A stretch of DNA of 64,000 bases from a virus (taxonomy: Duplodnaviria; Heunggongvirae; Uroviricota; Caudoviricetes). Below the pieces are notes generated by a model that saw only the letters and a list, made by a program, of their open reading frames with translations, was not told the DNA's origin and did not search any database. Every line of letters begins with the position of its first letter. Position 1 is the stretch's first letter. The stretch lies in IMG/VR virus record IMGVR_UViG_3300036768_001066. The stretch is one strand, 5' to 3'. Position numbers and translations under genes: made by a program. This document shows, piece after piece, positions 5,707 through 61,883 of this stretch.

Positions 5707-5716
5707 GTTGTTATTT

Positions 5717-15662: not shown

Positions 15663-15849
15663 GGTTCGTGCAATTTTATTCCGTTAACGTTTGTCTCTCC
15701 GGCGATAGCTTCTCAAAATGCTGGAACCTGTATTTTCCGGTTGTAGTGGTCTCTGGCACTTGTTGATGGTGGCAAGGGCCACCATCGAAATCGTCCGCAC
15801 CCCTGTAGACATACAGCAGACGAAAATCTTTGGCGTACTCCATCATATC

Positions 15850-16980: not shown

Positions 16981-17063
16981 CCTTATTGGTTTTATTGTAC
17001 AAATATACAATGAATATCTGAACGGGCGCTCAGGCCTGTTCAACTGGTCCCAAGTAACAACAT

Positions 17064-19702: not shown

Positions 19703-19713
19703 GACGAATGGAT

Positions 19714-19741
19714 AAAAAAGAGCCGGTAAAATACCGGCTCT
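19714..19741 (-). terminator. rho-independent terminator (minus strand)
   Basis: Hairpin AGCCGGT-aaaat-ACCGGCT. On the minus-strand RNA it is followed by UUUUUU (top A6 at 19714-19719). It sits right after the stop of the OmpA-like gene and before the permease start. Confidence 0.55.
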
Positions 19742-19746
19742 CAATG

Positions 19747-31550: not shown

Positions 31551-31778
31551 GGTTATCTTTTTGTTTGTCAATCGGCCTAATATAGGCAAATTTTCGGGTC
31601 CGATCAGCGACGGCTGGAGATTCTTCCACCGCGTAAGTACTTAACCGGTTACAAACCCTGGGGTTTTTGGGATAATTTTTTTATGCGCGTTTCGAACTTT
31701 TGTTTCGGCCGAAGCGCCGTTTCGTCATTTTTTTTTAGGGACCCGCGACAAATGGGCGATCCGCCGGTAATAGATGGT

Positions 31779-33584: not shown

Positions 33585-35503
33585 TAAATGATATTGAGAG
33601 CCAGAGATGCGACAAGCCAGATCCGCCGTATTTTGCCGGACGCATTGCAATAGTCATGCCGTTCAAGAATACCAAAGACGCGGATGGCAACAGCCTAATT
33701 CTCAGGTCCGCCGCCGTGGCATTGAACCCCACCGAGATGCGCGGTCCGAACGAGATTATACTTCTCGCCATCGACGACGGAGCCACCGACGGGAGCCGGG
33801 AACTTCTCGAGAGTATCGTGCAAGAGCACACTCGGAGGCTCGTAATCCTTAATGGCAGCGGCCGCGGACCGGCCGCTGCACGAAATGTTGCACTCGAGTA
33901 CATAAGGAGTTTGGACAACACGCCGGAAGCTTTCACTCACGTGGCATTTTGTGATAGCGACGACATGTGGTTCCCATGGCACCTGGCCCGTAGCTTGCAG
34001 GCCATTGATGACGGGTATGATATGGTGTATTCGAACGTCGAGTGCGAGAACGAGAAGGGCGAGCCTTTGCAGATATTCGGCATACCGAATCCGGAGGAGT
34101 TCGATTATGAGTTGCTCAAGCAGGGCAATTATATCTTCATATCAACCGTGGTCATGAAGAGGGAGTGTATAGACGTCGGTCAGTTCTCCGAGGATGCCGT
34201 CCCGATGGAGGACTGGGAGTACTGGTTGCGCGTTGCCGCGAAGTATCGGGTCAAACACGTACACGCAAAGAAGCCGAGCATAATCTACACATGGAAGAGC
34301 ACGGGCTCGTACTATACGGCAGAGGACTCGCATGCCGCTAAATTAAGAATACAACGGAAGATGAATTTACAAGATCCAATGAATGTCGAGGGATGGCTCT
34401 CCAGGGCGGAGGGCGAGTTCCTCGCAAAAAACGCCGAGGGCCGCAGATGTATAGAGATAGGCTCGTACAAGGGCAAGAGCGCTTGTTTTATGGCGCCGAA
34501 GGCGACGAGCATCGTGTGCATAGACACGTTCAAGGCGGACAACGGCGGACAGACTCAGATGCAGTCGCTCACCACCTACGTTGATTTCGCAAGGAACACC
34601 GCGCATCTCAACAACGTCACACCGCTCATTGGTATGTCGCAGAACGTGCACCAGTTGCTGAAGAACGACGAGTTCGACTTCATATTCATAGATAGCATGC
34701 ACGATTACGAGTCGGTCATGAACGATGTAAAGAACTACCTGCCCAAGCTGAAGGACGGCGCCGTGATAATGTTTCACGACTACTTCGAGCGCGACTGGCC
34801 GGGTGTTGTCAGGTGCGTCAACGAGTTATTTGGCGGCCCTGACGAACTCGTCGATACAATAGCGAAGGTGACAGTTACCGCAGAGAGGAGGTTCGACCTC
34901 GCTATCAAGTTCGCTGGGATGACATCCAGCGTTGATACTATCCCGAGCAATGAACCAAAGTTAGAGTTGACTCCTGATGTATCGGATTTCGAGAAGGGCT
35001 CACTCGATGGTAAAGTCATAGTGATAGCCCCATGGGCTGCTAAGTTGCCGGGGATGGAAAACGCCAAGAATTACCAGGACTGGCCGGAGGTGGTTGGCAT
35101 GCTTCGCGCACTCGGCGCTTACACCATACAGGTAGGTGTTGCTGGCGAGAAGTTGGTCGGATGCGACGAAGTCATACTGAACGCGGCGCCCGATAAACTC
35201 CTAAAGATCCTCAACGCATGCGATACGTTCGTGTCGGTGGACTCGTTCTTCCCTCATTTTGCAGCGTACCACAACAAAAAAGGTGTGGTTATTTTTTCGA
35301 AGTCGGACCCAAAAATTTTTGGACATTCCATCCACCTAAACCTCTTAAAATCAAGAGAATATTTGCGCCCGGACCAGTTCAGATGGTGGCGCGATGTTGC
35401 CTTAGATAAATCAGCCTTTGTGACTCCAAATGAGGTAGTTGCGGGTGTTTTGGAAATCTTAAAAGATGCGGAAATATATACAGAGCTGCCCGAAAGAAAG
35501 TGA
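33581..35503 (+). CDS. tri-domain enzyme: GT2 glycosyltransferase, class-I SAM methyltransferase (TylF/MycF-like), GT9-like C-terminal domain
   Basis: N-terminus IAIVMPFKN...LAIDDGATDGS...DSDDMW (GT2). Middle CIEIGSYKGKSA...FDFIFIDSMHDYESV...MFHDY (Methyltransf_24-like). C-terminus VIVIAPWAAK...FVSVDSFFPHFAAY (heptosyltransferase-like). ATGA overlap with the upstream gene. Confidence 0.7.
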   Translation: MINDIESQRCDKPDPPYFAGRIAIVMPFKNTKDADGNSLILRSAAVALNPTEMRGPNEIILLAIDDGATDGSRELLESIVQEHTRRLVILNGSGRGPAAARNVALEYIRSLDNTPEAFTHVAFCDSDDMWFPWHLARSLQAIDDGYDMVYSNVECENEKGEPLQIFGIPNPEEFDYELLKQGNYIFISTVVMKRECIDVGQFSEDAVPMEDWEYWLRVAAKYRVKHVHAKKPSIIYTWKSTGSYYTAEDSHAAKLRIQRKMNLQDPMNVEGWLSRAEGEFLAKNAEGRRCIEIGSYKGKSACFMAPKATSIVCIDTFKADNGGQTQMQSLTTYVDFARNTAHLNNVTPLIGMSQNVHQLLKNDEFDFIFIDSMHDYESVMNDVKNYLPKLKDGAVIMFHDYFERDWPGVVRCVNELFGGPDELVDTIAKVTVTAERRFDLAIKFAGMTSSVDTIPSNEPKLELTPDVSDFEKGSLDGKVIVIAPWAAKLPGMENAKNYQDWPEVVGMLRALGAYTIQVGVAGEKLVGCDEVILNAAPDKLLKILNACDTFVSVDSFFPHFAAYHNKKGVVIFSKSDPKIFGHSIHLNLLKSREYLRPDQFRWWRDVALDKSAFVTPNEVVAGVLEILKDAEIYTELPERK

Positions 35504-38551: not shown

Positions 38552-39688
38552 ATGAAAAAGTTGATGAAGTTTGGGGAGTATGCAACCCCGAAAGACTTGC
38601 GGAAAATATACCTGATTCCGCACTCGGATCGGTTCTCTTTCAGTCACATCGACCACCTTGTCCGACGTGTGGCGGAGAATCTGTTCGATCTCGTGATGGC
38701 GCCAGGTATTTTTAAAGACTCCATAAACTCCGAGCTGCCGGTTTACAACTATGGTAATCATGATGAGATATACGACCTGATAGAGAGCGGCGTTTTCAAA
38801 AAGAAGAACATATACAACCACCCCGATAACCTTAAGTACGCCAACGACAAGATAGAGTTCCACAAGGCGATGGATGGTCTTGACTTCGTGCCGAATACCG
38901 TGTTCAAGCAAGAGGACGTATCGAAGCTTAAGTTCCCCATAATAGCCAAACCCAAGGATGGTAGCAAAGGAGAGGGCATCACCGTATTTAAAACCAAGGA
39001 AGAACTTGACAGTTTTAAACCGGAGGACGAAGAATTCAAACTTGATTTGTTCAGCGAGAAGTTCGATCTGAAGAGGGAATTCAGGGTGATAACCGTAAAT
39101 GGCAAGAGGGTGTACATCGCCGAAAGGATCCCGATAAATGAGAAGGCCAAGAGTCTGAGGGAGAGTGCCAACATATTCCCGAGCAAGGACCTATTTGGTA
39201 AGAAGGGAACACTTGACGGTCGTAGCAGCTATAAGTGGGTCGAGATAAAGAACTCGGACCTCGACGATAAGGTGTGGAAGCAGATGGAGTCCATCATGCC
39301 GACTGTCTGTGAGAAACTGAAGCTGCAGGTTATGGGTCTCGACTTCGGTCTCGACTCGAAAGGCAAGGTGTGGATTATAGAAGCCAACACGTGCCCGGGT
39401 CTAAACAAGGACCAGATAGTCAGGATATACTTGGAGATATTTGAAGACTTCTATGGCCGCAAACCAGACGAGGTCACTATGAAGAAGATAAAGCAGATGC
39501 GCGACGAGCTTGTACGCGCGAGCAAGTCCAAGGTAAAGTTTTCGCACTCCGCATCGATGGGAAGAAGGATGGATTGGACCTATAAGGAGGACGGTCGCAA
39601 GACATCTAACGTTAAATTCGATGTTGAGAAGAGCTTTGGCCAGACGCTGAATAGTATTAAGGACCGCGCTAAAAAGAAGAAGATATGA
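38552..39688 (+). CDS. ATP-grasp domain enzyme (RimK-like ligase)
   Basis: PIIAKPKDGSKGEGI (ATP-binding loop), KREFRV, MGLDFGLD and WIIEANTCPGL (ATP-grasp C-terminal signature). Confidence 0.7.
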   Translation: MKKLMKFGEYATPKDLRKIYLIPHSDRFSFSHIDHLVRRVAENLFDLVMAPGIFKDSINSELPVYNYGNHDEIYDLIESGVFKKKNIYNHPDNLKYANDKIEFHKAMDGLDFVPNTVFKQEDVSKLKFPIIAKPKDGSKGEGITVFKTKEELDSFKPEDEEFKLDLFSEKFDLKREFRVITVNGKRVYIAERIPINEKAKSLRESANIFPSKDLFGKKGTLDGRSSYKWVEIKNSDLDDKVWKQMESIMPTVCEKLKLQVMGLDFGLDSKGKVWIIEANTCPGLNKDQIVRIYLEIFEDFYGRKPDEVTMKKIKQMRDELVRASKSKVKFSHSASMGRRMDWTYKEDGRKTSNVKFDVEKSFGQTLNSIKDRAKKKKI

Positions 39689-40371
39689 ACATTTCGGTTT
39701 TAATTCCGACCCGCGGCGACCGACCGCAATTTCTATCCAATGCACACAGGTTGCTCGAAGCTCAGACGCTGAAGCCGACCCACGTTGAAGTCGTTGACGA
39801 TCCGCCTAAGGACGCGGCCAAGAAGGATATTACCTGGAGATACCGCATTGGGTGTGAACGCATCCTCGCGGCCAACCCGAATACCGAGGCCATCGTGCTC
39901 ATAGAGGACGACGACTGGTATGCGCACAATTACATTGAGACCATGTACAACAACTGGATTAACGCAGGTCGCCCGCTCGTGTACGGCATAGGTGAGACAA
40001 TCTACTACCATCTCGGTATGCGCGCCTGGTTGAAGTACACGCATTTACCAAGGGCCTCGGCCATGAGCACGCTCATGTCTGCAGCTGGCGCCTCCAAGAT
40101 GCGGTGGCCTGATGATAACTACGTGTTCACCGACATAGAGATATGGAAGAAGTTGACTGGCAAGACATTCATTCCGGACAAGCCAATATCCATAGGTATT
40201 AAGGGATATAAAGAAGGTGCTTTATTTGGAGGTATAGGTCATAGATGGGACCTATGTCAGTATAAAATAAATGATGAAGAACTGAATTGGCTTAAAGATA
40301 AAGTAGATAGTACAAGTTTCGAGTTTTATAAAAAAATGTCCGATCTCGCCAGAAATACCGGTACCAAGTAG
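39685..40371 (+). CDS. GT2-like glycosyltransferase
   Basis: ISVLIPTRGDRPQFL ... VLIEDDDWY (DxD). ATGA overlap with the ATP-grasp gene. Confidence 0.55.
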   Translation: MNISVLIPTRGDRPQFLSNAHRLLEAQTLKPTHVEVVDDPPKDAAKKDITWRYRIGCERILAANPNTEAIVLIEDDDWYAHNYIETMYNNWINAGRPLVYGIGETIYYHLGMRAWLKYTHLPRASAMSTLMSAAGASKMRWPDDNYVFTDIEIWKKLTGKTFIPDKPISIGIKGYKEGALFGGIGHRWDLCQYKINDEELNWLKDKVDSTSFEFYKKMSDLARNTGTK

Positions 40372-40380
40372 ATATAAGAT

Positions 40381-41219
40381 ATGGAAATATATACGGGAGC
40401 AGCTGTTTATATAATTAAAAATTTAACTACCTCTAAATTTTATGTAGGTTCTGCTATAAACTATTATCAACGATTCTACCATAAAAGTTCTGGACATCTT
40501 GCTAAGTTAAATAAGGGATTACACCATAATATCTACCTACAACGTGCTTGGAACAAATACGGACAAATCGACTTCGTATTTGATATTATAGAAAAAATAG
40601 AAGATGTACATAAGTTGCTTGAACGCGAACAATTTTTTATAGATATACTGAGAGCATGTGAATATGGATATAATATAAACCCCACAGCCGGCAGCAGGTA
40701 TGGTACGATATTATCTGATGAGATAAAGAATAAAATTAGTAAATCGAGAACTGGTAAATGCGTTGGTACTGATAACGGATTTTTTGGTAAACAACATTCT
40801 GTAGAAACTAAGAAGATAATTAGTGATGCTAATAAAGGTCGGTTTATTGGTAGTGCTAATCCATTTTTGGTAAACAACATTCTGTAGAAACTAAGAAGAT
40901 AATTAGTGATGCTAATAAAGGTTGGGTTATGTCAGATGAAACAAAAACTAAAATATCAGAATCGATGTCGGGTACCAACAATCCAATGTTCGGTATTAAA
41001 AAATTTGGTAAAGCCAATCCATTTTATGGAAAAACTCATAATAAAGATACCAGAGATAAGATACGAAAAACTAAGAAAAATTTAATGCCGATTGACATGC
41101 GTACCGAAGATGACCAAATAATTCACTTCGATAGTTTAAATCTTGCTGTTAAGCACAGTGGTTTACATAAAAATACTATAAAAAATTGTGTGTTTCCGGT
41201 AAATCTAAAAATGGTATGA
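40381..41219 (+). pseudogene. GIY-YIG homing endonuclease with NUMOD3-like repeats, reading frame broken by an 83-bp insertion carrying a 59-bp direct repeat
   Basis: N-terminus VYIIKNLTTSKFYVGSAINYYQRFYHKSSGH (GIY-YIG). ORF1 stops at 40887. ORF2 (frame 0) is open from 40860 and re-encodes FGKQHSVETKKIISDANKG from the second repeat copy. Deleting 83 bp (40781-40863) restores one ~250-aa ORF with NUMOD3-type motifs (GKQHSVETKKIIS, GKTHNKDTRDKIRKT). Confidence 0.55.
40781..40922. repeat. 59-bp perfect direct repeat (40781-40839 and 40864-40922) separated by 24 bp
   Basis: TTTTTGGTAAACAACATTCTGTAGAAACTAAGAAGATAATTAGTGATGCTAATAAAGGT occurs twice. Period is 83 bp, not a multiple of 3. Confidence 0.8.
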
Positions 41220-41229
41220 CTTTTAAATT

Positions 41230-42012
41230 ATGCGTTTAGGAGTGGCATACAACGTTTTTGACGGTATCGAACTACTCGAATCGTCGATCGACAGTGTTCG
41301 TCCGGTTGCCGATTATATCTGTGTAATATACCAGACAACCTCGAACCTCGGCAATTTCATAAACGCGGATGTAGAGGCGGAAGTGCGCAGACTGAGGATG
41401 TCTGGCAAGATAGATGAGATGGCTCGGTACGTTCCTAAGGTTAATGGGGGTCACGTTAACGAACTGGCCAAGCGCAACTGGGGGCTCGACCTCGCCAAGT
41501 CAGTCGGGTGCACACACTTCATGACGATGGACGTGGACGAGCTGTACGATAAGGACGAGCTCATGTTCGCCAGGCAGATGGTCGAGGCAGGCGGGTTCCA
41601 ATCGAGCGCGTGCAAGATGCTCACGTACTACCGGTCCGGAGAGTTCATAGTGGATCCGCCCGAAGAATATTACGTCCCGCTGATATATAAAATAGACGGT
41701 CGTGTATTCTCGATGAGTTCGCGGTGGCCGGTTGCTGCAGATCCTACAAGAAGGATGCTGCCAGGCAACATCAAGCTGTTTGAGCGAAATGAGATACAGA
41801 TGCACCACTTCTCGTATGTTCGCAAGGATATACGTGCAAAGCTGATAAACTCGTCCGCTTCTGTTAATTTCAAGGACAGGATTGAGGAGATAGCCCAGCA
41901 CTACGAGAACTGGCAGTACGGGCAGAAGTGCCTGTTCGCCGGCAAGGAGAGAAGGATGTACGACGTCAAGAGAGTGGACAATAAATTCAACATACAGGAC
42001 CAATGCGCATAA
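41230..42012 (+). CDS. putative glycosyltransferase (GT-A fold, DxD)
   Basis: FMTMDVDELYD DxD-like motif. 260 aa. Sits in the glycan island. Fold assignment not certain. Confidence 0.45.
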   Translation: MRLGVAYNVFDGIELLESSIDSVRPVADYICVIYQTTSNLGNFINADVEAEVRRLRMSGKIDEMARYVPKVNGGHVNELAKRNWGLDLAKSVGCTHFMTMDVDELYDKDELMFARQMVEAGGFQSSACKMLTYYRSGEFIVDPPEEYYVPLIYKIDGRVFSMSSRWPVAADPTRRMLPGNIKLFERNEIQMHHFSYVRKDIRAKLINSSASVNFKDRIEEIAQHYENWQYGQKCLFAGKERRMYDVKRVDNKFNIQDQCA

Positions 42013-42458
42013 AAGACCTAAGAGATTTACTCGCACAGCTTCCGGCCGAACTCGACGAGAAGACCGTAGTTATACGGGAATTTGGACATCTTGACGAAGG
42101 CAAGTATTTCAAGCTTGACAAACCGATAGGCCTCGCGCACTACGACGAGGAGACCGGTGAACTCGCTGTCACAGAATCCGAAATGTTCGAGAAATTCAAG
42201 AACGAGGGATGGTTCCCAGTTAAAGAGGGATACGTGAATAAGTACGACGAAGTTAAACACGAAGTTAGCGAAGACGGAGAAGGCGGAGGTCCTGGACCAG
42301 ATTCCGGATTCGGTACTGTTGATTCAGTAAATGGAATGGGTGCTCCGGTTCTTGCATCTCGAGGCGTGACTGGTTCTGGTGACGTTCCAAGTGTTGCACC
42401 GACAAAGAAGAAGAAGAAGCGCAAGATATTGTCGTTCGACAAGTTCTTTACTCGATAA
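42003..42458 (+). CDS. hypothetical protein (151 aa) with Gly-rich linker and poly-Lys C-terminus
   Basis: ORF ending in convergent overlap with the minus-strand block. EDGEGGGPGPDSGFG linker. KKKKKRK near the C-terminus. Confidence 0.4.
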   Translation: MRIKDLRDLLAQLPAELDEKTVVIREFGHLDEGKYFKLDKPIGLAHYDEETGELAVTESEMFEKFKNEGWFPVKEGYVNKYDEVKHEVSEDGEGGGPGPDSGFGTVDSVNGMGAPVLASRGVTGSGDVPSVAPTKKKKKRKILSFDKFFTR

Positions 42459-43098
42459 TCTCTGGCACGATTTCTATGGGTTCGTCGACGCCTTTCAACC
42501 GCCATACGCCGTCGCCCTCCCACCAGTCGTTGACCGTATGGTATGCTATGAAGTCGTAGTTTTCAGATAGCAGTTCCATGAAATCTTTCATTTTGTTGCC
42601 GCCAAGCCCATCGTAAATGTTTGGCTTGTCATCCTTTTCAACCTCGCATTGTATATTCACAATGCGTTTTTCTTTTATCCAAGACTCCATGGTCTTTAGT
42701 ACGGTCAAGTCCATACCCTGTAGATCGGTGACGAGAAGGTCTATCTTCTCTATTCCACGACGCTTTAGGTACTCTGACAAGTTTATGCAAGGAACTTTCA
42801 ACTTCTTTATACCCGTATTGTATAACACCGAGTTGGGATCTTTCATGTGGTGAAACTCTGGGTTGAACGTGCCCATGGATGATGATGCGTCCCACTTCTT
42901 CATTATGTTGAACTCGATATGTCCGGTATCTTTGTCGCACAGGGCGCCGAATACCTTCTTCACCTTTGGTGGGAGTATCTTGGCTGCGCGCGCAATCTTT
43001 CGGGGATTAGCATCGAATCCAATGATGACGTCAAACTTATCTATGAGCTGCATGATGGTATTGCAATTATGAATACCACAGTAAACGAGTGTCTTCAT
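42448..43098 (-). CDS. FkbM-family methyltransferase-like protein
   Basis: VIIGFDANPRK near the N-terminus (FkbM GxDxGAN-type motif). 216 aa. Confidence 0.55.
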   Translation of the reverse strand: MKTLVYCGIHNCNTIMQLIDKFDVIIGFDANPRKIARAAKILPPKVKKVFGALCDKDTGHIEFNIMKKWDASSSMGTFNPEFHHMKDPNSVLYNTGIKKLKVPCINLSEYLKRRGIEKIDLLVTDLQGMDLTVLKTMESWIKEKRIVNIQCEVEKDDKPNIYDGLGGNKMKDFMELLSENYDFIAYHTVNDWWEGDGVWRLKGVDEPIEIVPEIIE

Positions 43099-43099
43099 A

Positions 43100-44755
43100 T
43101 TAGTAGAAATACTTGCTGACTATTTTGTAGTCGGCAAACTGGTTGGCAATATCAGAAAAGTCCTCCTTTACTTTGACCAAGAATGGTATGGTCGTATACA
43201 CCTTGTGACCAGGTTGTACCCTGTAGCACAGGTAATCGTCGAGCGTCATCTCCTCTCCCTTAGTGACTTCGTATATCCTCTGTAGCATGTGCTGACCGCG
43301 TATCAATACGCCGAACACTCCGAAGCAGTTGAGCGAATATACGTTATTGCCTATGTGTCTCGGGTTTGGTAGTCCGTGCCAGTGGCATCCAATGTACAGC
43401 ATTTCCCAGTCTTTGGGAACAGTGGACATTAGCTTCACGAATCTTTTGTTGAAGTCGGGCTGCAGTACAACGTCATCCTCAAACACACATATAGAATTGT
43501 GACCTTTGTCGAGCGCGTCCTTTATGGCATTGCGATGCGAACGCAGACATCCGACGGCACCTTTTATCTTGTCGCCTTGCATATCTCCGTGCCTCATGTG
43601 GTGCGTGCCCTCGATCTTCCATCCGTCCACCGCAAGCCAGCGCGTCACCTTGATGTTGTGCACGTCAAATTGCTGAGAAACCTCGAGCCATCTATCGTGC
43701 CTTCTCTCGAGGTTTATGCAGTACACTTCGTCCACCACATCGTTTAATGGACTTGGAGAAGACCCGAGTCCGAACAGAAGTTCAGGGTAGTTGAAGTACA
43801 TGAAGTCTTCGTATGATAGGAACTGCCTTATGCAGCGCTCATAGTTGTCCCTTATCGCCGGCAGCATCTTCTGGTACATATCAGGCGTCAGGGAGTTAAG
43901 CATCGTCTCGGCCTCGGCCAGGTTGTCTATCTGTATTATGCCGTTCGGATTAAAGAACTGAGCAATGGACGGGCATCCGTAGTATATCGGAACAGTGCCG
44001 GTCATGAAGCAATCTATCAGCTTCTCCGTGAAGTAATAATCCTCCTTCGTGTTCTCTATCGCAAAGGAGAACATGTAATCTTTCAAACCCTCTATCTTAT
44101 CCGGTATGTCGTTGAACCCGCGCCCGTATAAGTCAATCTTAGAGCGCAGGCGTTGCACGATTCTGTGGCGTAGATGATGTCCGCTTGTGAAGTTCTTGTT
44201 TGACGTTATCATCGACACCAGTTTGGTCTTGGGGTGCAGTCCCCAATCCTTCTCCTTTATCCAGCATGACCCGCCCGGAACAAACTTGAACCTGACAGGA
44301 TCGGAGTCGAGCAATGATCGCTTGAACGTAAATACCTTGTTGAACTGCGTTGCATTCTGAGCAAGCCACCCATACTCGTCTGTTGTTATCTCTGGTGACT
44401 CAATCATCCATGCGTACTTAGTCTTGCCGTTAAACATCCCGTGATTCTTGATGCTCGCATCCGTCATGAACACATAGTTGTACGCGTTAACGTTACGATC
44501 CCAGTCGAAATAACGTCTGTCGTCCGGCACGTGCCCGAACAGAGTGTCGGCAAGCGGCACCTTCTTCTTAGTTGCCGGCGGGGTTAGCGGAGCCGGCAAG
44601 CTGCCGACTACCTGCTCTGGCTTGAAATCATCCAAATCCTCCTGGCTGACTGGTGATTGTGGTGTGCTCACTTCTTCTTGTTTTTGTTGCTGGTTCAGTT
44701 TCTTCTGTACAAAATGTACCAACTTGCTTTTGTACTGTTTGCTGAAATATCCCAT
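43100..44755 (-). CDS. bifunctional glycosyltransferase: N-terminal GT10-like (alpha-1,3-fucosyltransferase motifs) + C-terminal GT25 domain
   Basis: FAIENTKEDYYFTEKLIDCFMTGTVPIYYG matches the FucT FxxEN...TEK motifs. C-terminal VYCINLERRHDRW ... GAVGCLRSH ... VFEDDVVL matches GT25 (LPS glycosyltransferase) hallmarks. Confidence 0.65.
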   Translation of the reverse strand: MGYFSKQYKSKLVHFVQKKLNQQQKQEEVSTPQSPVSQEDLDDFKPEQVVGSLPAPLTPPATKKKVPLADTLFGHVPDDRRYFDWDRNVNAYNYVFMTDASIKNHGMFNGKTKYAWMIESPEITTDEYGWLAQNATQFNKVFTFKRSLLDSDPVRFKFVPGGSCWIKEKDWGLHPKTKLVSMITSNKNFTSGHHLRHRIVQRLRSKIDLYGRGFNDIPDKIEGLKDYMFSFAIENTKEDYYFTEKLIDCFMTGTVPIYYGCPSIAQFFNPNGIIQIDNLAEAETMLNSLTPDMYQKMLPAIRDNYERCIRQFLSYEDFMYFNYPELLFGLGSSPSPLNDVVDEVYCINLERRHDRWLEVSQQFDVHNIKVTRWLAVDGWKIEGTHHMRHGDMQGDKIKGAVGCLRSHRNAIKDALDKGHNSICVFEDDVVLQPDFNKRFVKLMSTVPKDWEMLYIGCHWHGLPNPRHIGNNVYSLNCFGVFGVLIRGQHMLQRIYEVTKGEEMTLDDYLCYRVQPGHKVYTTIPFLVKVKEDFSDIANQFADYKIVSKYFY

Positions 44756-44756
44756 G

Positions 44757-45374
44757 TTATTTTAGTTTCCAATTTTCCCAAACAAAATCGTAATTGTATG
44801 TAAGTACGTGTGTCCTTGATAGGCGTGTCCTTATAGCGTCCCTGCGCTGCTGGCACTCCGGATAAAACGTATGGAATTGTACTTGAATATTATCGAGCTT
44901 CAAAAGTTCATCTGTAGTCAGGCAGTCAAGTAGGTCGTATTCGGCGCCCTCTATGTTTATCTTTATCAGGTCCACCTTCTGTATGTTTGCGAGGAACTCG
45001 TGCACCGAGTCTATAGTTATAGGCACCTTCTCGTCGCCCTCCGCGAACATGCCCGATCCATCTGCCGACATCGTTATGGTTGCATCGCTTTTCTCGTGAC
45101 CGAGCGCGGTCTGGTAAACGTGCACCTTTGGGCTGTTGGCGAACATCGCTTTGATGTTCTGGCAGAACGAGGCCACTGGCTCGAACACGTGTATCGTGCA
45201 TCCGTACATGTCGCTGATGGTCTTACCCCATTTGCCCTCGTACCCGCCGAGATCGATGACTACAGAATCCTGCGTTAGCGCATAGTTTACCCTGTGCGTC
45301 TGGTCTCCCCTGTTGTCGAACCACCTTCGTATCTCCGACATGAAGTGGTTGTGTAGCTGTTCTGGTGTCATCAT
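44757..45374 (-). CDS. FkbM-family methyltransferase
   Basis: VVIDLGGYEGKW and DLIKINIEGAEYDLL (FkbM signature). Confidence 0.65.
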   Translation of the reverse strand: MMTPEQLHNHFMSEIRRWFDNRGDQTHRVNYALTQDSVVIDLGGYEGKWGKTISDMYGCTIHVFEPVASFCQNIKAMFANSPKVHVYQTALGHEKSDATITMSADGSGMFAEGDEKVPITIDSVHEFLANIQKVDLIKINIEGAEYDLLDCLTTDELLKLDNIQVQFHTFYPECQQRRDAIRTRLSRTHVLTYNYDFVWENWKLK

Positions 45375-45892
45375 AGTTTTGCGACTAAAATATCATTCGG
45401 TATGTGTCCGTCCTCGTACGAGAATTTGTATCCTTCATTTATTTGTAGGATTTTCTCCTTTATGTCGTTCTCTCCGAACTTGATCTCCGGGTCCTCTACC
45501 TGCCAGCAGCGCATATCGTCCACGAGAATTATGTGGTTCTTGATGCCGTGCCGCTGGATCTGCTCGAACTCCTCTATGAGCGGGCAGTTCTTCTTGCCGT
45601 ACGCAGTCTCACCGGCGGACCAGTGCCCGTCGAGCCAGAACGTTATGGGAGTATCGACATCCTTTATCGCATCGTATAGCACGTCGGCGGAGTCGCCCTG
45701 CACTATCTTGACGTTTGGATTATCCTTGAATCTTGCAACGCAGTGGTTGTAGAATTTCTCGGACAGCTCTATAGATATGACCCTTTTGAACCCGGCGTCA
45801 AGCGCCCCTTGTATACCATCACCCATGTAAGAACCCGTTTCTACGAGGCAGGGATTTAGGTATTTCTTGAATGTATCTTTCTTTATTGGCAT
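45371..45892 (-). CDS. class-I SAM-dependent methyltransferase-like protein
   Basis: Motif I LVETGSYMGDG. Acidic motif ILVDD. Start set at internal ATG 45892 to avoid overlap with the upstream gene. Confidence 0.5.
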   Translation of the reverse strand: MPIKKDTFKKYLNPCLVETGSYMGDGIQGALDAGFKRVISIELSEKFYNHCVARFKDNPNVKIVQGDSADVLYDAIKDVDTPITFWLDGHWSAGETAYGKKNCPLIEEFEQIQRHGIKNHIILVDDMRCWQVEDPEIKFGENDIKEKILQINEGYKFSYEDGHIPNDILVAKL

Positions 45893-45906
45893 AGTATATT
45901 TATTCT

Positions 45907-46650
45907 TTATATTTTTGACCAGTTCTCTGGCAACAAGTCCTTTGTATCGAGGTTGTCGTACGCAGGTCCGAACCATTTGCCAGGCGCTATAACTCGTTTG
46001 TTGGGGTTTTTATTAAGGTACGCGCCCCACCAGCTGAAGCTCGAGTTTGCTATGACGTTGTGCTTGCACTTGGACATCAACATCAGGTCGTATACGTCCG
46101 GGTGCTGCTCGTCTACAAAAACAAACTTATTACCTACAAAATTCTCCCTACACCAGTTTATATCGTCAGAGAATATGACAAACGTACAATCACCCATCAC
46201 CTCCATAGCCCTGGTGTAATATGCCATGGGCATGACCGGATGGTGTTGCGACAGATTCACATAGTCCGTCCTCCTTATATGCAAAGAACAGGTATTGTCT
46301 CCGAACGATGCCGCGAGCGCGTCTATTTTTTCGGCGTGCTCTGGCTTTAGCTCGAAGTACCCGAGAGCCTCCTCTTTGTACTTGTCGAAGTACCGCCATG
46401 ACTGCAGGTATCCTACAATATCAAAGATGCCCTCGCCGACCTTTATCTCGCCGTAATGAAACCCTACCTCGTCCACCTTCGTAGCCGGCACTATTCCGGC
46501 AGGGAGCTCTTTTTTCATGTAGTGTGAGTACTTCCACTCTGGGAATATGTATTCGTGTCCGTTGGCGCGAGCTATTCCAATAACGGATGCTATCTGGAAC
46601 ATCTGGTTGCCGAGGCGGCCGTATTTGCCGAGATTGCTGAATGTTATCAT
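45907..46650 (-). CDS. alpha-1,2-fucosyltransferase (GT11 family)
   Basis: Canonical GT11 motif I GRLGNQMFQIAS at the N-terminus. HIRRTDY motif. C-terminal SSFSWWGAYL motif. Confidence 0.8.
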   Translation of the reverse strand: MITFSNLGKYGRLGNQMFQIASVIGIARANGHEYIFPEWKYSHYMKKELPAGIVPATKVDEVGFHYGEIKVGEGIFDIVGYLQSWRYFDKYKEEALGYFELKPEHAEKIDALAASFGDNTCSLHIRRTDYVNLSQHHPVMPMAYYTRAMEVMGDCTFVIFSDDINWCRENFVGNKFVFVDEQHPDVYDLMLMSKCKHNVIANSSFSWWGAYLNKNPNKRVIAPGKWFGPAYDNLDTKDLLPENWSKI

Positions 46651-47552
46651 AGACCTCTAATGTATTTCTTAGTTTTATCGTCAAGCTCTCCAGTTATGTC
46701 CATGCCGTTATCCGATTGCCACTGTATTATGGCCGCTCTTGTCTGTTCGTCGTATACACCAGTGCAGGACACGTTCATGCCGAGATGTATCATTCGGTTT
46801 TGCATTATTATTATATCGGTGTTACAGTCTCCGAACTTTGGGATGTATTCTGAAGGTTGTTCGTACGGGTAGAACTTGTAGTACGAATTGTTTATTATGC
46901 CGTCATCGTCCGGGTAGAAGTGGAAGTAGTCCCACGCGTATAATTTTTTAATTCGTTCAACCTGCTCCGGGAATGGGACGTACGAGTCCTTGTCAGATAT
47001 GTTCTCCCTGAAGTCCGGAACGTTTGTGCCGAGGATCTGGTTTATTCGTGGTATGACAGGGCCGTCTTCTATCCGCAGTATGTGGTTGAACCGGTCCCTT
47101 ATCGGTCCTTTGTGGCAGTTGTGGTTGTCCGGAAACAGGCACTGCAGATTTAGATGGTGCTCTATATTGGAGTCCATGTCCCGTTCTTCCAGAAACCTCA
47201 GCAGGTCCTCCATCCGCTCAATCTTGTGTTTGTTCAGGTTTGTCACACCGAGCACTTCAAGAACAGAATGGTTCAAAACCGACACAAGTCTGTCCACTGG
47301 GTTGCGGGTCACGAGGATGCTTACGTAGTCCTTTAAATTTTCGTCGTTGGATATTTTGAACGGGATTTCTATGTAGGGTACGACCATGTGCACCCTGTTG
47401 GAGGGCAGAGAAACCCCGTTGCCGTTTATCAATGCCACGTGCGAGTAGGTATCGCGGTCGACGAAGTAGAACCAGTTTTTGAGAGACGTGCAGGCGCACC
47501 TCGCGTTCCAGTACAGTATGAATTTTCTATTGCCGTTTATCAGTGGATACAT
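46647..47552 (-). CDS. sulfotransferase-like domain fused to a C-terminal peptidoglycan-binding (PG_binding_1-like) domain
   Basis: ILVTRNPVDRLVS matches the sulfotransferase 3'-phosphate-binding motif (RxPxxRxxS). C-terminus TGVYDEQTRAAIIQWQSDNGMDITGELDDKTKKYI matches the PG-binding helix repeats. Start at ATG 47552 overlapping the upstream stop (TAATG). Confidence 0.5.
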   Translation of the reverse strand: MYPLINGNRKFILYWNARCACTSLKNWFYFVDRDTYSHVALINGNGVSLPSNRVHMVVPYIEIPFKISNDENLKDYVSILVTRNPVDRLVSVLNHSVLEVLGVTNLNKHKIERMEDLLRFLEERDMDSNIEHHLNLQCLFPDNHNCHKGPIRDRFNHILRIEDGPVIPRINQILGTNVPDFRENISDKDSYVPFPEQVERIKKLYAWDYFHFYPDDDGIINNSYYKFYPYEQPSEYIPKFGDCNTDIIIMQNRMIHLGMNVSCTGVYDEQTRAAIIQWQSDNGMDITGELDDKTKKYIRGL

Positions 47553-48172
47553 TATTGTCCTGGAGGTTTCATTAGTCTGGTGTAGTCCATATATGCGTTC
47601 TGTATGTCGCTGTGCCCCGGCTTCTGCCACGCTATGCTCGGATTGAACACGTAGCAGTTGTGTGTTTTCTGAAAATCGGTATACGTGACGTCTATCTGGG
47701 ATTTGAACTTCTCCACCTCTGCTATCACCTCGGCCGCCATCTTCTTGGTTATGCCGTAGTGGCTCGTCGTGTACGTCCTAACTATCTTGGACACATTTTG
47801 CGTCACCGGTATCGGGTGGGCTATGTGGTTGCCCCCGAGATACAGCATGTCCCAATCGGCAGGCACCTGACCGATCCATTGGTGGAACTGGGCCGGCGCG
47901 TGCACGGAGAACTCTATGTCGTCCTCGAGGATCAGAATCCTCTCCCATCCCTCGTGCAGCATTCTCTTTAGAATGGTGGTGTGACTTAGCGAACACCCGA
48001 CTTCGCCAGGCGTTATTGCACAGTTTGGCGGCAATGCAATGGTGCTTCCGTCGACTGCGGAGAACCGTACGACGTCGATGCCGGCCTGCTCGAATTCCTT
48101 CAGGCACAGTTCCCATTTGTCAGTACGCTTATCAAGGTTGACGCAGAATATCTTGTCGAAGTACTTATTCAT
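47552..48172 (-). CDS. GT25-family glycosyltransferase
   Basis: IFCVNLDKRTDKW ... EVGCSLSHTTIL ... ILEDDIEF, typical of the GT25 family. Confidence 0.7.
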   Translation of the reverse strand: MNKYFDKIFCVNLDKRTDKWELCLKEFEQAGIDVVRFSAVDGSTIALPPNCAITPGEVGCSLSHTTILKRMLHEGWERILILEDDIEFSVHAPAQFHQWIGQVPADWDMLYLGGNHIAHPIPVTQNVSKIVRTYTTSHYGITKKMAAEVIAEVEKFKSQIDVTYTDFQKTHNCYVFNPSIAWQKPGHSDIQNAYMDYTRLMKPPGQ

Positions 48173-48482
48173 CTTTGTCTTTTATTCTTTTTATCAGATC
48201 CACCATTTTATTGACCGTATCAAAGTTCTCCGGTATCGCGAGAGCGTCCGGCACCTGTATGTCGAACTCATTCTCTATGAACACCAGCACGACCACCATC
48301 GAAAACGAGTCGATGTATCCGCCGTTTATCAGTGACGTATCATAATTGACATCGAACAAATCGTTGCACGTACACTTCTCAAATGGAGCATAGCAGTACG
48401 AGTAGTGGTGCCTCCTGTTTTCGCTGCGGTCTTGACTACCGAATTCTTTCTTTATGTAGTTAAGGATTATATCCTTCATCAC
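48165..48482 (-). CDS. acyl/aminoacyl carrier protein-like (ACP/DltC-like)
   Basis: GGYIDSFSMVVVLVFIENEFDIQVPD resembles the ACP helix-II motif with a DSxS phosphopantetheine site. Four-helix-length C-terminal 70 aa. N-terminal 35-aa extension is atypical. Confidence 0.45.
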   Translation of the reverse strand: MMKDIILNYIKKEFGSQDRSENRRHHYSYCYAPFEKCTCNDLFDVNYDTSLINGGYIDSFSMVVVLVFIENEFDIQVPDALAIPENFDTVNKMVDLIKRIKDKDE

Positions 48483-49063
48483 ACTATATTATTTTTTACG
48501 AACTCCCTTATGTACACAGGGTCTTGTATGTGTATCATGTTGTCGCTAAGTTCCTTCTGAAGGAACCCGTATTTGTCCGCATAATCATTGTAAACATCCA
48601 CAAATAAGAAATCGTTGGCGCCACACAGTTCTTTGTACCTTTCGTTCATGTACCTTATGTACTCTGCGCGCTCCGCATCTTCCCCATAAAATGGGAAATC
48701 CACGTTCTCTTTAGCATCCGCCTTCCTGAGGGTCGGAGGGATGTTGTACACCATGACCTTCACCCCTGGCATCTTTTCGATGTTGGCATTTATGGCCTCG
48801 AAGTAATTTTTTGCGATACTGTCCATCAGCATCCTGCTGCTCGACCTGAATTTGCCTATGTGGCACCTGCAGTCTATCTCTCCGAACGAGAAGCATACGT
48901 AATCGCCGGGCGCCACATTGAACCTCGGCTCGGATATATCCAGTATCTCCAATTTCTTACGGCCGAAACTCTGCGCCGTTATCGGTCCTATCCTGTTTGT
49001 AGAAACCCCCTCGATCTGGTCCCAGGCGAACCAAGCGTGACTATCTCCGAACGTATGAATCAT
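48479..49063 (-). CDS. SGNH/GDSL-family hydrolase or acyltransferase
   Basis: Block I IHTFGDSHAW (GDS-H) at the N-terminus. About 190 aa, typical of single-domain SGNH proteins. Immediately downstream of the carrier-protein gene. Confidence 0.5.
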   Translation of the reverse strand: MIHTFGDSHAWFAWDQIEGVSTNRIGPITAQSFGRKKLEILDISEPRFNVAPGDYVCFSFGEIDCRCHIGKFRSSSRMLMDSIAKNYFEAINANIEKMPGVKVMVYNIPPTLRKADAKENVDFPFYGEDAERAEYIRYMNERYKELCGANDFLFVDVYNDYADKYGFLQKELSDNMIHIQDPVYIREFVKNNIV

Positions 49064-49997
49064 TAGTTACCAGGTTTTTAATTTTGTCCGCCATGTGGTT
49101 CCACGTATAGTTGCGGTGAACCAGTTCGCAACCTGCCTGCGATATTCTTATCCTCTCGTCCTTGTTCCTCTCGTCAAGGTAGTATTCTATAAGTTCATCG
49201 AGTTCATCCAAATCGTGCCATACTCTTATATTGATCTTGTCTTCAAAATCGAGTTCTATGCCGGGGTACCACTTAGACAAGCACAGTGCCCCGCTGCCCA
49301 TTAGGCGTAGCATGCGGTCTGATGTGTACCTGAGCGCGTCGAAGTGTGACACGTTTATGGCCACCTTAGAGCTCCTGTAGCACTCGGCCTCCTTGGCCTC
49401 CCTGTACATGAAGTTACGCATGTCGTTACCCCACCCGAATCCGTACACTCCGAAATTTGTACCGTACTTGGACGACAGCGTGTTGACCATCTTGATTCTA
49501 TAGTCTGCCAGGGGGAAATCGTAGTCTTCCTTTGGGTAGTTGTTGCCCATGAAAACTATCTGTGGGTATTCTCCCACGCCACCGTCTGGCCTGAATATAT
49601 CATCGTTGAATCCGCTCTGGATGAACTCGGCGTTCATGCCGAGGGCGCGCATGAACATAACATCCTCATCGTTGGTGAACGCGGTTACGTCCACGGACCT
49701 CCCACAATCAATCATCCACTGAGGCGTAAGTTTTCGAAAGTCCCAGGTCCAGTTCACCTTAAACCCCGGTAGCTTGGCGAGCACCTCCGGCGTGTAGACA
49801 CCCGGTGATTGCACGTGCAGGAATATCAGGTCTGGTTTGAACCGCTCGGCCGTCTCTAACGTCTTCGCGTGAAGAGCCGCCGTGTTGTTGGGCACGGAGG
49901 TCCACAGAGTCCAGTCGAGGAACAGGTATTCGCTCGATGCGTCCGATAACGCCTTGCAGAGTGCGGGTACGGTAAATCCTATGTGCAGGGTCCTCAT
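49041..49997 (-). CDS. glycosyltransferase (CgeB/GT4-like C-terminal domain)
   Basis: About 320 aa. C-terminal half with ...VAINVSHFDALRYTSDRMLRLMGSGALCL... resembles CgeB-type GT-B domains. First gene of the minus-strand glycan block. Confidence 0.5.
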   Translation of the reverse strand: MRTLHIGFTVPALCKALSDASSEYLFLDWTLWTSVPNNTAALHAKTLETAERFKPDLIFLHVQSPGVYTPEVLAKLPGFKVNWTWDFRKLTPQWMIDCGRSVDVTAFTNDEDVMFMRALGMNAEFIQSGFNDDIFRPDGGVGEYPQIVFMGNNYPKEDYDFPLADYRIKMVNTLSSKYGTNFGVYGFGWGNDMRNFMYREAKEAECYRSSKVAINVSHFDALRYTSDRMLRLMGSGALCLSKWYPGIELDFEDKINIRVWHDLDELDELIEYYLDERNKDERIRISQAGCELVHRNYTWNHMADKIKNLVTNDSYVRR

Positions 49998-50004
49998 CTA
50001 TCTA

Positions 50005-50086
50005 TAAGTTATGGCTTTTATTATATACTGCTCACCAAATAAGTTACGGCTTTTATTATATACTGCTCACCAAACATTAAGTTTTA
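50005..50086. repeat. 35-bp tandem direct repeat (2.3 copies) in a divergent intergenic region
   Basis: TAAGTTA[T/C]GGCTTTTATTATATACTGCTCACCAAA at 50005-50039 and 50040-50074, then a partial CATTAAGTTTTA. It lies between the divergently oriented gene blocks, with starts at 49997 (minus) and 50138 (plus). Confidence 0.75.
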
Positions 50087-61036: not shown

Positions 61037-61846
61037 ATGATAAACATAAGGGACGTATATACCGAGGATGAGGTGAGGGCATTGTCGCTTGGCGACAGGA
61101 TGAAGTGGTACGAGAAGAACGTTGGCAAGGTGCTCTCGGAAGGTTATCCCGCCATAATAAGAATAGACGGCAAGGCCTTCCATACATACACCAACGGGTT
61201 CGAGAAGCCGTTCGACGAGCACATATCCGGTGCTATGCTTTACACCACTATAAAATTGTGCGAGGAGATACAGAACGTTAAGATTGCGTACATGCAGTCT
61301 GACGAGATTTCCTTGCTGATGACCACGCACCAGAACCCAGAAGCGGAGCACTGGTTCAAGGGCAAGGTCGACAAGATAGTGTCAGTGTCCGCATCGATGG
61401 CATCTGCGCACTTCAACGATTACATGGACAAGATGTACTGGAACCCGCGGATACTTGCCGCCGAGGTGGTAGGTGACGCGCCGAAACGCAAGCTCGCAGT
61501 ATTCGACGCTCGCGCGTGGAGCGTCCCTTTCGACGAAGTCAACAACGTATTCGTGTGGAGGCAGCAGGACGCCATAAGAAACTCGGTTTCGGCGTTGGCA
61601 CAATCCGAATTCTCGCACAAAGAACTCAACAAAAAGAACGTGGAGACCATGAAACAGATGCTCGCGGAAAGGGGTATACTCTGGCACGAACTGCCAGAGG
61701 TTCTGCAACGCGGTCACATAGTGGAGAGAGAGTACTACGAAAAGGACGGGGCGACCAGAAGTCATTGGGTTTCAAGCAAGACGATCCCTATATTTTCCGT
61801 TGATCGTTCCAAGGTATCCAAGTTCGTGGAAGTTACCGCGACCTAA
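61037..61846 (+). CDS. Thg1-like protein (tRNA-His guanylyltransferase / 3'-5' polymerase family)
   Basis: Family hallmarks AIIRIDGKAFHTYT (vs. RxDGRxFHxF) and AYMQSDEISLLM (vs. GQSDEYSF) at the expected spacing. About 270 aa. Confidence 0.75.
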   Translation: MINIRDVYTEDEVRALSLGDRMKWYEKNVGKVLSEGYPAIIRIDGKAFHTYTNGFEKPFDEHISGAMLYTTIKLCEEIQNVKIAYMQSDEISLLMTTHQNPEAEHWFKGKVDKIVSVSASMASAHFNDYMDKMYWNPRILAAEVVGDAPKRKLAVFDARAWSVPFDEVNNVFVWRQQDAIRNSVSALAQSEFSHKELNKKNVETMKQMLAERGILWHELPEVLQRGHIVEREYYEKDGATRSHWVSSKTIPIFSVDRSKVSKFVEVTAT

Positions 61847-61883
61847 GTTTTCGTTAATCAATTTTTATTCGTACCTTTGAACC

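Follow-up and report, generated by a model that had tools for sequence, protein, structure and literature searches.

A predicted GT11 fucosyltransferase within a conserved glycan operon of large, distantly Lak-related phages

The 64,000-nucleotide stretch of DNA analysed here (the window) comes from the IMG/VR virus record IMGVR_UViG_3300036768_001066, assigned to the Caudoviricetes, and carries on its minus strand, at 45907-46650, a gene for a 247-residue protein of glycosyltransferase (GT) family 11. We consider it probable, at roughly 0.72, that this protein is a fucosyltransferase that performs one step of a cytoplasmic glycan assembly line encoded by the phage. This reading draws on the families of the enzymes, their conserved donor-binding and catalytic residues, their folds, the structure of the operon, the conservation of the cassette among related phages and the linkage of homologues to gmd and fcl in other genomes; the identity of the donor, the linkage, the order of the steps and the product are predictions drawn from these. 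The coordinates of the features discussed are collected in Table 1.

Membership of the 247-residue protein in GT11 is secure. The Pfam profile Glyco_transf_11 (PF01531) matches it with 86.4 bits (E 2.7e-24; cut-off 23.9), residues 11-222 aligning with profile positions 39-275 of 298, and phrog_2644 matches it over its full length (E 2.9e-66). The first-pass annotation had made the same assignment from three motifs, GRLGNQMFQ, HIRRTDY and SSFSWWGAYL. All three are located in the 247-residue minus-strand open reading frame (ORF), at residues 11-19, 124-130 and 203-212, respectively, and the Pfam, PHROG and fold matches agree with a GDP-fucose-type transferase. Thousands of PF01531 relatives were retrieved from 5.8 billion proteins; most are 236-265 residues long and 40-50% identical to the query, and five closer ones reach 64-78% identity. 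Conservation was read from an alignment of 38 homologues. In the N-terminal G-x-x-G-N-Q sequence (motif IV, G-x-L-G-N-Q-M/L-F-Q) G11, G14 and N15 are invariant, as are H124, R126 and D129 of motif I, where R127 and Y130 reach at least 90%, and N202 to S206 of motif III (general form ANS-S/T-F/Y-SWW; here NSSFSWW, residues 202-208). The family consensus of motif I is HVRRGDY, and the threonine that the clade of the window protein has in place of the glycine is a variant scattered through the family rather than a defect. Alignment with Helicobacter pylori FutC, which can serve as a lead only, gave 29% identity over 188 residues (E 3e-21), with HIRRGDY opposite HIRRTDY in motif I and IIANSTYSWWAAYL opposite VIANSSFSWWGAYL in motif III.

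The predicted fold points in the same direction. An AlphaFold2 model built from the 38-homologue alignment reached a predicted local distance difference test score (pLDDT) of 96.1 and a predicted template modelling (TM) score of 0.93. When this model was compared with the PDB by Foldseek, all 50 best matches were to FUT8, NodZ, POFUT1 and AtFUT1 (E 5e-7 to 5e-4, TM score 0.5-0.6), that is, only to GDP-fucose fucosyltransferases of families GT23, GT65 and GT37. A published superfamily unites alpha-2-, alpha-6- and O-fucosyltransferases, and motif I, HxRRxD(Y/F), is a GDP-fucose-binding motif that is also common to alpha-1,6-fucosyltransferases (PMC8439653). The matches of the predicted model fit this superfamily.

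Neighbourhoods of the homologues link the GT11 family strongly to GDP-6-deoxyhexose synthesis. In the cyanophage S-SCSM1, gmd and fcl are found at a distance of 3-5 genes from the GT11 homologue (35.7% identity), in an array that also holds a mannose-6-phosphate isomerase gene (PMC9602691). GT11 relatives are encoded on at least 577 IMG/VR stretches, of which the best 80 were examined, 43 of them being at least 15 kb long. A Gmd homologue (at least 46% identity) was present within 10 kb in 25 of the 80 loci, including 21 of the 43 longer ones, and Fcl accompanied Gmd in 14 of the 80. GT10, GT11 and GT25 genes are directly adjacent in several IMG/VR loci. In one relative of the window (contig L007) Gmd is encoded inside the cassette itself (380 bits on TIGR01472; 47% identical to the Gmd of the cyanophage). 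The window has no counterpart: Epimerase and GDP_Man_Dehyd Pfam domains were absent from its ORFs of at least 250 residues, and tblastn of Gmd and Fcl from S-SCSM1 against its six frames gave a best E value of only 3.5. The earlier statement that gmd and fcl are missing from the window is thus borne out, and the donor must accordingly come from the host or from the part of the genome outside the window.

The same operon encodes a second candidate fucosyltransferase, a 551-residue protein read from a single uninterrupted ORF on the minus strand at 43100-44755. After a low-complexity stretch (residues 1-69), it joins a GT10-like domain to a GT25 domain. The C-terminal Glyco_transf_10 profile (PF00852) matches residues 174-289 and Glyco_transf_25 (PF01755) residues 343-459, each with 48.9 bits (cut-offs 23.9 and 24, respectively). 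In searches of the PDB by sequence the first half matched H. pylori alpha-1,3-fucosyltransferase, HpFucT (2nzw/5zoi, E 1e-11), followed by Arabidopsis FucTA/FUT11 (9s6a), mango FUT13 and human FUT9, and the second half matched procollagen galactosyltransferase 1 (COLGALT1, E ~1e-9), Mimivirus R655 (E 6e-7) and the GT25 protein 8xc8. A profile of 39 homologues of the GT10-like half retrieved GT10 structures only (E 4e-16). The sequence FAIEN-x7-YFTEK aligns with FEN...YVTEK of HpFucT and with AtFUT11 and FUT9; its Asn, Glu and Lys correspond to residues that bind the donor in HpFucT (2NZW). Likewise, E119 (in AWMIESP) aligns with the Glu of WMNLESP in FUT9, reported to be the catalytic base (Glu137 in FUT9, Glu95 in HpFucT), and is a candidate for the catalytic Glu of the fusion protein. 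In the 39-homologue alignment the counterpart of E119 (E60 in the numbering of the aligned half) and, in that numbering, E175, E185 and K186 are invariant, as are the Arg of GHxxR and the EN/TEK residues. A model of residues 60-335 (pLDDT 94.5) had HpFucT, AtFUT11 and FUT9 as its nine best Foldseek matches in the PDB (TM score 0.53-0.60), ahead of generic GT-B enzymes.

The fusion is genuine, for its two-domain architecture is repeated in nine metagenomic relatives. In contig L003 the GT10 and GT25 halves are adjacent separate genes for 314 and 218 residues. That the two are fused in some relatives and separate neighbours in another indicates that both activities serve one pathway. The first-pass annotation had described the gene at 43100-44755 as a GT10-like/GT25 neighbour of the GT11 gene; the fusion and its motifs are as described, but two other genes (45371-45892 and 44757-45374) lie between. 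Domain joining is also seen in a 796-residue metagenomic protein (P0149) that combines GT10, GT11 and GT2 domains in one chain.

Both enzymes belong to a tightly packed minus-strand operon of ten genes that runs without gaps from 49997 to 42448. Its products are, in order, a GT-B glycosyltransferase, an SGNH protein, a small carrier protein, a stand-alone GT25 enzyme, a sulfotransferase, the GT11 protein, a 173-residue protein, an FkbM methyltransferase, the GT10-like/GT25 fusion and a second FkbM methyltransferase, which amounts to four glycosyltransferase genes and one product of unknown family. The ATG of the GT11 gene overlaps the TGA of the gene upstream (ATGA), and 14 nt separate its TAA from the ATG of the next gene at 45892. 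That ATG, together with the gene calls of the source contig, shows that the listed 201-residue ORF at 45371-45976 is really the 173-residue gene. The operon is most likely translationally coupled as a single unit. All cluster proteins lack transmembrane segments (the carrier protein shows one marginal hydrophobic stretch), and an initiating phosphoglycosyltransferase, flippase, polymerase or ligase was found neither in the window nor in the cassettes of four relatives. The plus-strand genes at 38552-42458 form the other half of the same conserved locus.

The cassette recurs in a lineage of large phages that have Lak phages as distant relatives. It was examined in four related contigs (L002, L003, L006 and L007), and the order of GT25 and GT11 in a fifth (L005) as well. 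In the four, identity to the window is ~50-72% for GT11 and 49-63% for the fusion, and the order GT25 - (sulfotransferase) - GT11 - ... - FkbM - GT10(+)GT25 is kept, with an FkbM gene directly upstream of the GT10 gene in each and with an ATP-grasp block, guanylate kinase and baseplate genes as flanks. In every one of the five relatives GT25 precedes GT11, directly in L005 and L007 and with only the sulfotransferase in between in L002, L003 and L006. In L006 and L007 the ATP-grasp gene and genes for ~220- and ~260-residue proteins stand directly upstream of the cassette and are co-directional with it. Around this core the tailoring genes differ. In L007 (6987-12162) they encode Gmd, a fragment of a DegT-type aminotransferase and a hexapeptide acetyltransferase, which together resemble a perosamine route; in L003 (7237-7881 and 14163-15062) a NeuB-like synthase and a PseF-like cytidylyltransferase, as for nonulosonic acid; and in L006 radical SAM, GT4 and a second sulfotransferase (4324-5052 and 15581-16339 being the radical SAM and sulfotransferase regions). 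By analogy, such swaps around a conserved glycosyltransferase core resemble the diversification of O-antigen loci. At 6373-8388 of L007 a NUMOD3 endonuclease adjoins the DegT aminotransferase gene, which seems truncated or split. Homing endonucleases may drive gene turnover in the glycan locus.

The pathway that we propose would run as follows. GT25 enzymes are beta-galactosyltransferases, and the stand-alone GT25 enzyme encoded upstream would make a beta-galactose terminus as the probable acceptor of the GT11 protein. The latter, predicted to be a soluble, inverting GT-B enzyme using GDP-L-fucose from the host or from genes outside the window, would cap this beta-galactoside with alpha-1,2-fucose. 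The GT10-like domain would then place a second, alpha-1,3/4-type fucose on a neighbouring residue, and the GT25 domain fused to it would add galactose. The methyltransferases and the sulfotransferase would decorate the product by O-methylation and sulfation, as would an acyl or aminoacyl branch made up of the ATP-grasp enzyme, the carrier protein and the SGNH protein. The plus-strand half of the locus would contribute the ATP-grasp enzyme and GT2 enzymes, and N-acetylglucosamine could come from the GT2 and GT-B enzymes encoded in the locus. Judged from the genes, the product would be a sugar chain that contains fucose, is methylated and is probably sulfated as well.

Several points weigh against this reading. 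The alpha-1,2 linkage of the GT11 protein is not secure. The three motifs had been called diagnostic for alpha-1,2-fucosyltransferases of the H-antigen type, a claim that does not stand: motif I is common to alpha-1,6- and O-fucosyltransferases, and GT11 holds at least one alpha-1,3 enzyme, Hh0072 (PMC8439653), so that belonging to the family does not fix the linkage. No GT11 structure was found in the PDB by single-sequence or profile search, which yielded only a sub-threshold alignment of FUT8 over motif I, and a solved GT11 structure for comparison of the acceptor site is thus missing. NCBIfam gave no equivalog or family match for either the GT11 protein or the fusion. The Pfam model of the GT10 N-terminal domain did not match the fusion, and the N-terminal domain alone drew only chance matches (xyloglucanases) from the PDB; for both reasons the protein is called GT10-like, with a divergent acceptor domain. 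As gmd, fcl and fkp are all absent from the window, the donor is assumed. In L007, Gmd stands without Fcl beside the DegT fragment and the acetyltransferase, and the GDP-sugar made there may be of the perosamine type. Finally, soluble glycosyltransferases also build glycans linked to undecaprenyl diphosphate (Und-PP), as in H. pylori, and the missing transmembrane segments are therefore no proof of a protein acceptor.

As to what the glycan is attached to, we lean towards a protein of the phage virion, although with odds that fall slightly short of even, because the enzymes are all soluble, export genes are missing and the lineage has kept the core. An appreciable, though minority, possibility is that the same enzymes act on lipid-linked glycans of the host (lipopolysaccharide (LPS) O-antigen, capsule or the Bacteroidota general O-glycan) and remodel the surface of the infected cell, for example to block superinfection or to spare progeny from adsorbing to debris. 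This was the reading of the first-pass annotation and is the usual one for cyanophages, where such genes are classed as cell-wall or LPS modification (PMC9602691). It gains from the H. pylori GT25, GT10 and GT11 enzymes, which are soluble and act on Und-PP-linked O-antigen (PMC6892558), and from hints of the envelope in the window, namely the peptidoglycan (PG)-binding domain on the sulfotransferase and the presence of an OmpA-like PG-binding protein and an ABC transporter. The distant kinship with Lak phages and the scarcity of Shine-Dalgarno motifs (below) would also fit a Bacteroidota host, and Bacteroidota have abundant GDP-fucose. However, the genes that initiate, flip, polymerize and ligate such glycans are those missing from the window and from the four relatives' cassettes, and the cluster encodes no membrane protein. 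Moreover, about ten glycosyltransferase domains and four classes of tailoring enzymes look like de novo synthesis rather than the retouching of an existing glycan, and the glycosyltransferase core is conserved among the phages at 50-80% identity, whereas host surface glycans differ from strain to strain. An acceptor of some other kind is improbable.

A different question is whether L-fucose is the sugar transferred. Gmd, an aminotransferase and an acetyltransferase form the gene set of the GDP-perosamine-type route, and all three have counterparts in the L007 cassette, where Fcl is missing. In some relatives a GDP-sugar other than GDP-fucose therefore stays open, and the threonine that replaces the glycine of HxRRGDY in the window clade might be read in the same sense. 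The GT11 and GT10-like enzymes would then transfer another GDP-6-deoxyhexose, such as colitose, perosamine or N-acetylperosamine, D-rhamnose or 6-deoxytalose. We regard this as unlikely. The 14 IMG/VR loci and S-SCSM1 pair the GT11 family with both Gmd and Fcl, the threonine variant is scattered through the family, the cassette in the window has neither an aminotransferase nor an acetyltransferase, and the characterised GT11 and GT10 enzymes cited here all use GDP-fucose (PMC8439653, PMC12748750, PMC6892558).

That the glycosyltransferases decorate phage DNA is very improbable and was set aside: phage glycosyltransferases are known to hypermodify DNA with glycans, which here would fall on hydroxymethylated bases, but the paper describing this names no GT10, GT11 or GT25 enzyme, fucose or sulfotransferase (10.1101/2023.12.21.572611), the window proteins that were scanned included no hydroxymethylase and none of the TET/JBP type, and the one cluster protein that matches a PHROG labelled DNA methyltransferase owes the match to a Methyltransf_24 domain joined to GT2.

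The phage origin of the window is evident from genes for an SbcC/gp46-like protein, a DnaB-like helicase, a T4-type RNA ligase and ribonucleotide reductase (RNR), and from structural genes for a T4 gp15-like tail sheath stabiliser and a baseplate V-like protein; tRNA genes were not detected in the window. The phage is large, T4-like/Lak-related and apparently lytic. Its helicase is closest to those of Lak phages (42% amino-acid identity), and the major capsid protein of the sister contig L003 to those of the Lak megaphages of Prevotella and the huge phage LR756500 (35-36%), identities to Lak phages amounting overall to 35-43% for these two proteins. Lak phages have low GC, in contrast to the ~49% of the window. 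Recoding of a stop codon in the Lak manner was rejected: TAA ends 34, TGA 15 and TAG 7 of the 56 genes of the window, and their ORFs are intact. The use of TAG as a stop means that the window, unlike Lak phages, follows the standard genetic code.

A Bacteroidota host, the setting assumed in the first-pass annotation, is plausible. It is weakly favoured by the Lak phages being the nearest relatives and by the scarcity of Shine-Dalgarno motifs, which precede only 9 of the 56 genes even by a relaxed criterion; regions upstream of start codons are A-rich across the window. On the other hand, the Bacteroidota -7 motif TAnnTTTG is not enriched in the window (39 copies against ~33 expected) and stands upstream of only 2 of the 56 genes. 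Bacterial relatives of the GT11 protein, at most 44% identical and scattered over many phyla, offer no clue to the host. Moraphages are large aquatic phages nearer to Lak than to T4 phages, with DnaJ/DnaK, predicted Bacteroidota hosts and core orthogroups that include four glycosyltransferases (PMC12619734). The window lineage is like them, as judged from their description, in its Lak-nearest capsid protein and helicase and in the DnaJ gene beside the capsid genes of L003. This gene (5597-6565, minus strand) adjoins those for the prohead protease and the gp23-like capsid protein. A search with its product gave no taxonomic signal for the host, as all relatives above ~37% identity were metagenomic proteins; this suggests a phage-specific clade of DnaJ.

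How does the cassette compare with known systems? T4-like cyanophages (S-SCSM1, S-SM2, S-SRM01 and S-T4) encode GT11 proteins of ~240-265 residues that align with that of the window over the full length at 35-39% identity, as well as homologues of the GT10-like domain at 36-45%. GT25 is adjacent there, and, as in the window, the genes lie amid arrays of multiple glycosyltransferases and methyltransferases. Cyanophages, however, often carry gmd and fcl alongside, which the window does not, whereas the window has GT10 and GT25 fused, adds the sulfotransferase, two FkbM methyltransferases, the carrier and the SGNH protein, and sits on a distantly Lak-related rather than a Kyanoviridae backbone. 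The first-pass annotation had singled out the presence of two distinct fucosyltransferases in one phage; both families are indeed present, but the pair is not unusual, being common in T4-like cyanophages and IMG/VR contigs.

H. pylori builds Lewis x and y antigens with GT25 (HP0826, HP0619), GT10 (FutA/B) and GT11 (FutC) enzymes (PMC6892558). The same three families occur together in the one operon of the window, two of them fused, and the residues of the GT10 donor motif FEN...TEK align one by one; the enzymes as a whole are ~18-29% identical. The H. pylori enzymes act on Und-PP-linked O-antigen that is exported by Wzk and WaaL; the phage cassette lacks export genes, the fusion lacks the heptad-repeat C terminus of HpFucT, and no homologue of the H. 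pylori-type GT8 beta-1,3-N-acetylglucosaminyltransferase was noticed here. Among phage-borne enzymes, the FutC-like GT11 proteins fpr and fpb from prophages of gut bacteria have been shown to produce 2'-fucosyllactose (PMC12748750). They are likened to the window protein from their description, having conserved GDP-fucose-binding residues, but are single morons in temperate Ruminococcus and Bacteroides prophages, whereas the window gene is part of a ten-gene operon. Precedents for virion glycosylation encoded by the virus itself are found in giant viruses (PMC9614988), and the O-glycans of mycobacteriophage virions are a further one (Freeman et al. 2023, as cited in PMC12619734). Chloroviruses, mimivirus and mycobacteriophages use soluble viral glycosyltransferases and methyltransferases without host membrane machinery, a likeness that for the window is drawn from the genes alone; R655 of Mimivirus is among the PDB relatives of its GT25 domain.

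Homologues of the GT11 protein are encoded in 103 deposited phage genomes, several being annotated as GT11 or alpha-1,2-fucosyltransferase, and 20 phage records also encode the GT10-like domain. The 642-kb uncultured huge phage LR756502.1 has four separate GT11-like places. Megablast of the glycan cluster against deposited phages gave no match, and no deposited phage record covers at least 80% of the fusion, the best (huge phage LR756508) covering 60% in two pieces. The GT10-GT25 fusion, the fusion of the sulfotransferase to a PG_binding domain and the combination with genes for FkbM, carrier and SGNH proteins are lineage-specific and were not seen in deposited phages.

Table 1. Features of the glycan locus in the window. 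Contigs are denoted by L numbers.
Feature	Coordinates	Strand	Evidence and remarks
GT11-family glycosyltransferase, 247 residues, ATG start; predicted GDP-L-fucose:beta-galactoside alpha-1,2-fucosyltransferase	45907-46650	-	Pfam PF01531, phrog_2644, motifs, AlphaFold2 and Foldseek
GT10-like fucosyltransferase domain, fusion residues ~70-335	43751-44548	-	Pfam PF00852, profile, AlphaFold2, Foldseek
GT25 domain, fusion residues ~336-551, predicted beta-galactosyltransferase	43100-43750	-	Pfam PF01755, PDB sequence matches
GT-B glycosyltransferase (Glyco_trans_1_2), first operon gene	49041-49997	-	Pfam PF13524 67.3 bits; cassette head also in L002, L006, L007
SGNH/GDSL-like hydrolase or acyltransferase, 194 residues (weak assignment)	48479-49063	-	Pfam PF13472 28.2 bits, below 32.9 cut-off
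Small carrier protein, DltC/acyl carrier protein (ACP)-like (weak assignment)	48165-48482	-	Sub-threshold NCBIfam DltC/ACP matches, E 2e-9 to 1e-6; Pfam PP-binding 17.5 bits, below cut-off
Stand-alone GT25 glycosyltransferase, 206 residues	47552-48172	-	Pfam PF01755 57.5 bits (cut-off 24); phrog_2835
Sulfotransferase (Sulfotransfer_2) with C-terminal PG_binding_1, 301 residues from ATG at 47552	46647-47552	-	PF03567 31.6 bits, PF01471 39.8 bits
Conserved 173-residue protein, glycine-rich VETGSYMGDG motif	45371-45892	-	Same position in L001, L003, L004, L006
FkbM-family methyltransferase, 205 residues	44757-45374	-	Pfam PF05050 35.7 bits; phrog_8156
Second FkbM-family methyltransferase, 216 residues, last operon gene	42448-43098	-	Pfam PF05050 43.3 bits
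ATP-grasp	38552-39688	+	Pfam
GT2-like, 228 residues	39685-40371	+	Pfam
GIY-YIG/NUMOD3 homing endonuclease, split in two ORFs (40381-40887, 40929-41219)	40381-41219	+	Pfam
Conserved protein of unknown family, 260 residues	41230-42012	+	
Protein of unknown family, 151 residues	42003-42458	+	
Two large (~635-residue) multidomain glycosyltransferases: 2xGT2; GT2 + Methyltransf_24	31683-35503	+	Pfam
27-bp element, two perfect copies 35 bp apart, TTTGGTGAGCAGTATATAATAAAAGCC (minus strand)	50013-50074	-	0 expected by chance

Some further features of the locus deserve mention. The sulfotransferase weakly matches phrog_3347, labelled 'galactose-3-O-sulfotransferase', and its gene call in L001 likewise gives 301 residues. 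The PG_binding_1 domain on this apparently cytoplasmic enzyme is unexplained, and its homologues in L002, L003 and L006 (209-232 residues) are without it. For the 173-residue protein there was no match in Pfam, PHROG, NCBIfam or the PDB, and calling it a methyltransferase would be only a guess; PDB searches with the 260-residue protein and the sulfotransferase gave no significant match either. The two large multidomain glycosyltransferases are separated from the rest of the glycan locus by the gene for the RNR large subunit, and the GT2 + Methyltransf_24 protein stands beside RNR in L002 too. The duplicated 27-bp element lies in a 140-bp divergent intergenic stretch that separates the glycan operon from the gene for guanylate kinase, has no further copy in the window and is possibly a promoter or operator; a scan for sigma-70 promoters and terminators gave nothing above the shuffled expectation. 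At the other end, the last gene of the operon and the plus-strand gene at 42003-42458 converge with an 11-nt overlap (42448-42458), with no terminator-like hairpin between them.

Elsewhere in the window, the minus strand carries genes for an ABC transporter ATPase (18081-18908), a BPD_transp_1 permease (18905-19744; ~5-6 hydrophobic segments) and, next to these, an OmpA/Pal-like PG-binding protein (19747-20184). NCBIfam gave only sub-threshold matches for the substrate of the transporter (phosphonate, SaoA, sulfate); the substrate thus cannot be assigned, and a tie to the sulfotransferase is unsupported. At 15850-17091 on the minus strand lies a gene for a 413-residue protein that consists almost wholly of hexapeptide (left-handed beta-helix) repeats. 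GC is raised there (0.555, compared with ~0.49), and long ORFs overlap on the two strands. The product may be an acyltransferase or else a structural protein resembling a fibre. Unusual auxiliary genes at 12221-13942, 24527-25522 and 61037-63074 encode a TPM-domain membrane protein (573 residues), a phosphoribosyl pyrophosphate synthetase, a Thg1-like tRNA-His guanylyltransferase and a NUDIX hydrolase.

As an enzyme assignment, the GT11 protein described here adds little. Phage GT11 proteins have a PHROG of their own (phrog_2644), have many phage homologues, are annotated in many cyanophages and have been assayed from prophages, and the window protein is accordingly an ordinary member of a family common in phages rather than a novel one, although as a small soluble enzyme of 247 residues it is a potential biocatalyst for fucosylated oligosaccharides. 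Of wider interest is the module to which it belongs. GT11, GT10-like and GT25 enzymes, often linked to gmd and fcl, recur together in very different large phages, and the target of this glycosylation is the key question. The Lak-related lineage has a compact, conserved and all-soluble version of the module with genes for sulfation and methylation, and is a reasonable candidate in which to ask whether such phages modify their own particles or the host surface. A bolder and rather improbable proposal would see in the cassette a self-contained, membrane-independent protein-glycosylation system of a lineage of large, Bacteroidota-associated phages of the Lak or 'moraphage' kind, giving the virion a coat of Lewis/H-antigen-like fucoglycan that is O-methylated and sulfated. 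If true, it would be a bacteriophage counterpart of the capsid glycosylation of giant viruses, possibly with a role as a shield, or in attaching the particle to mucus or to matrices of polysaccharide.

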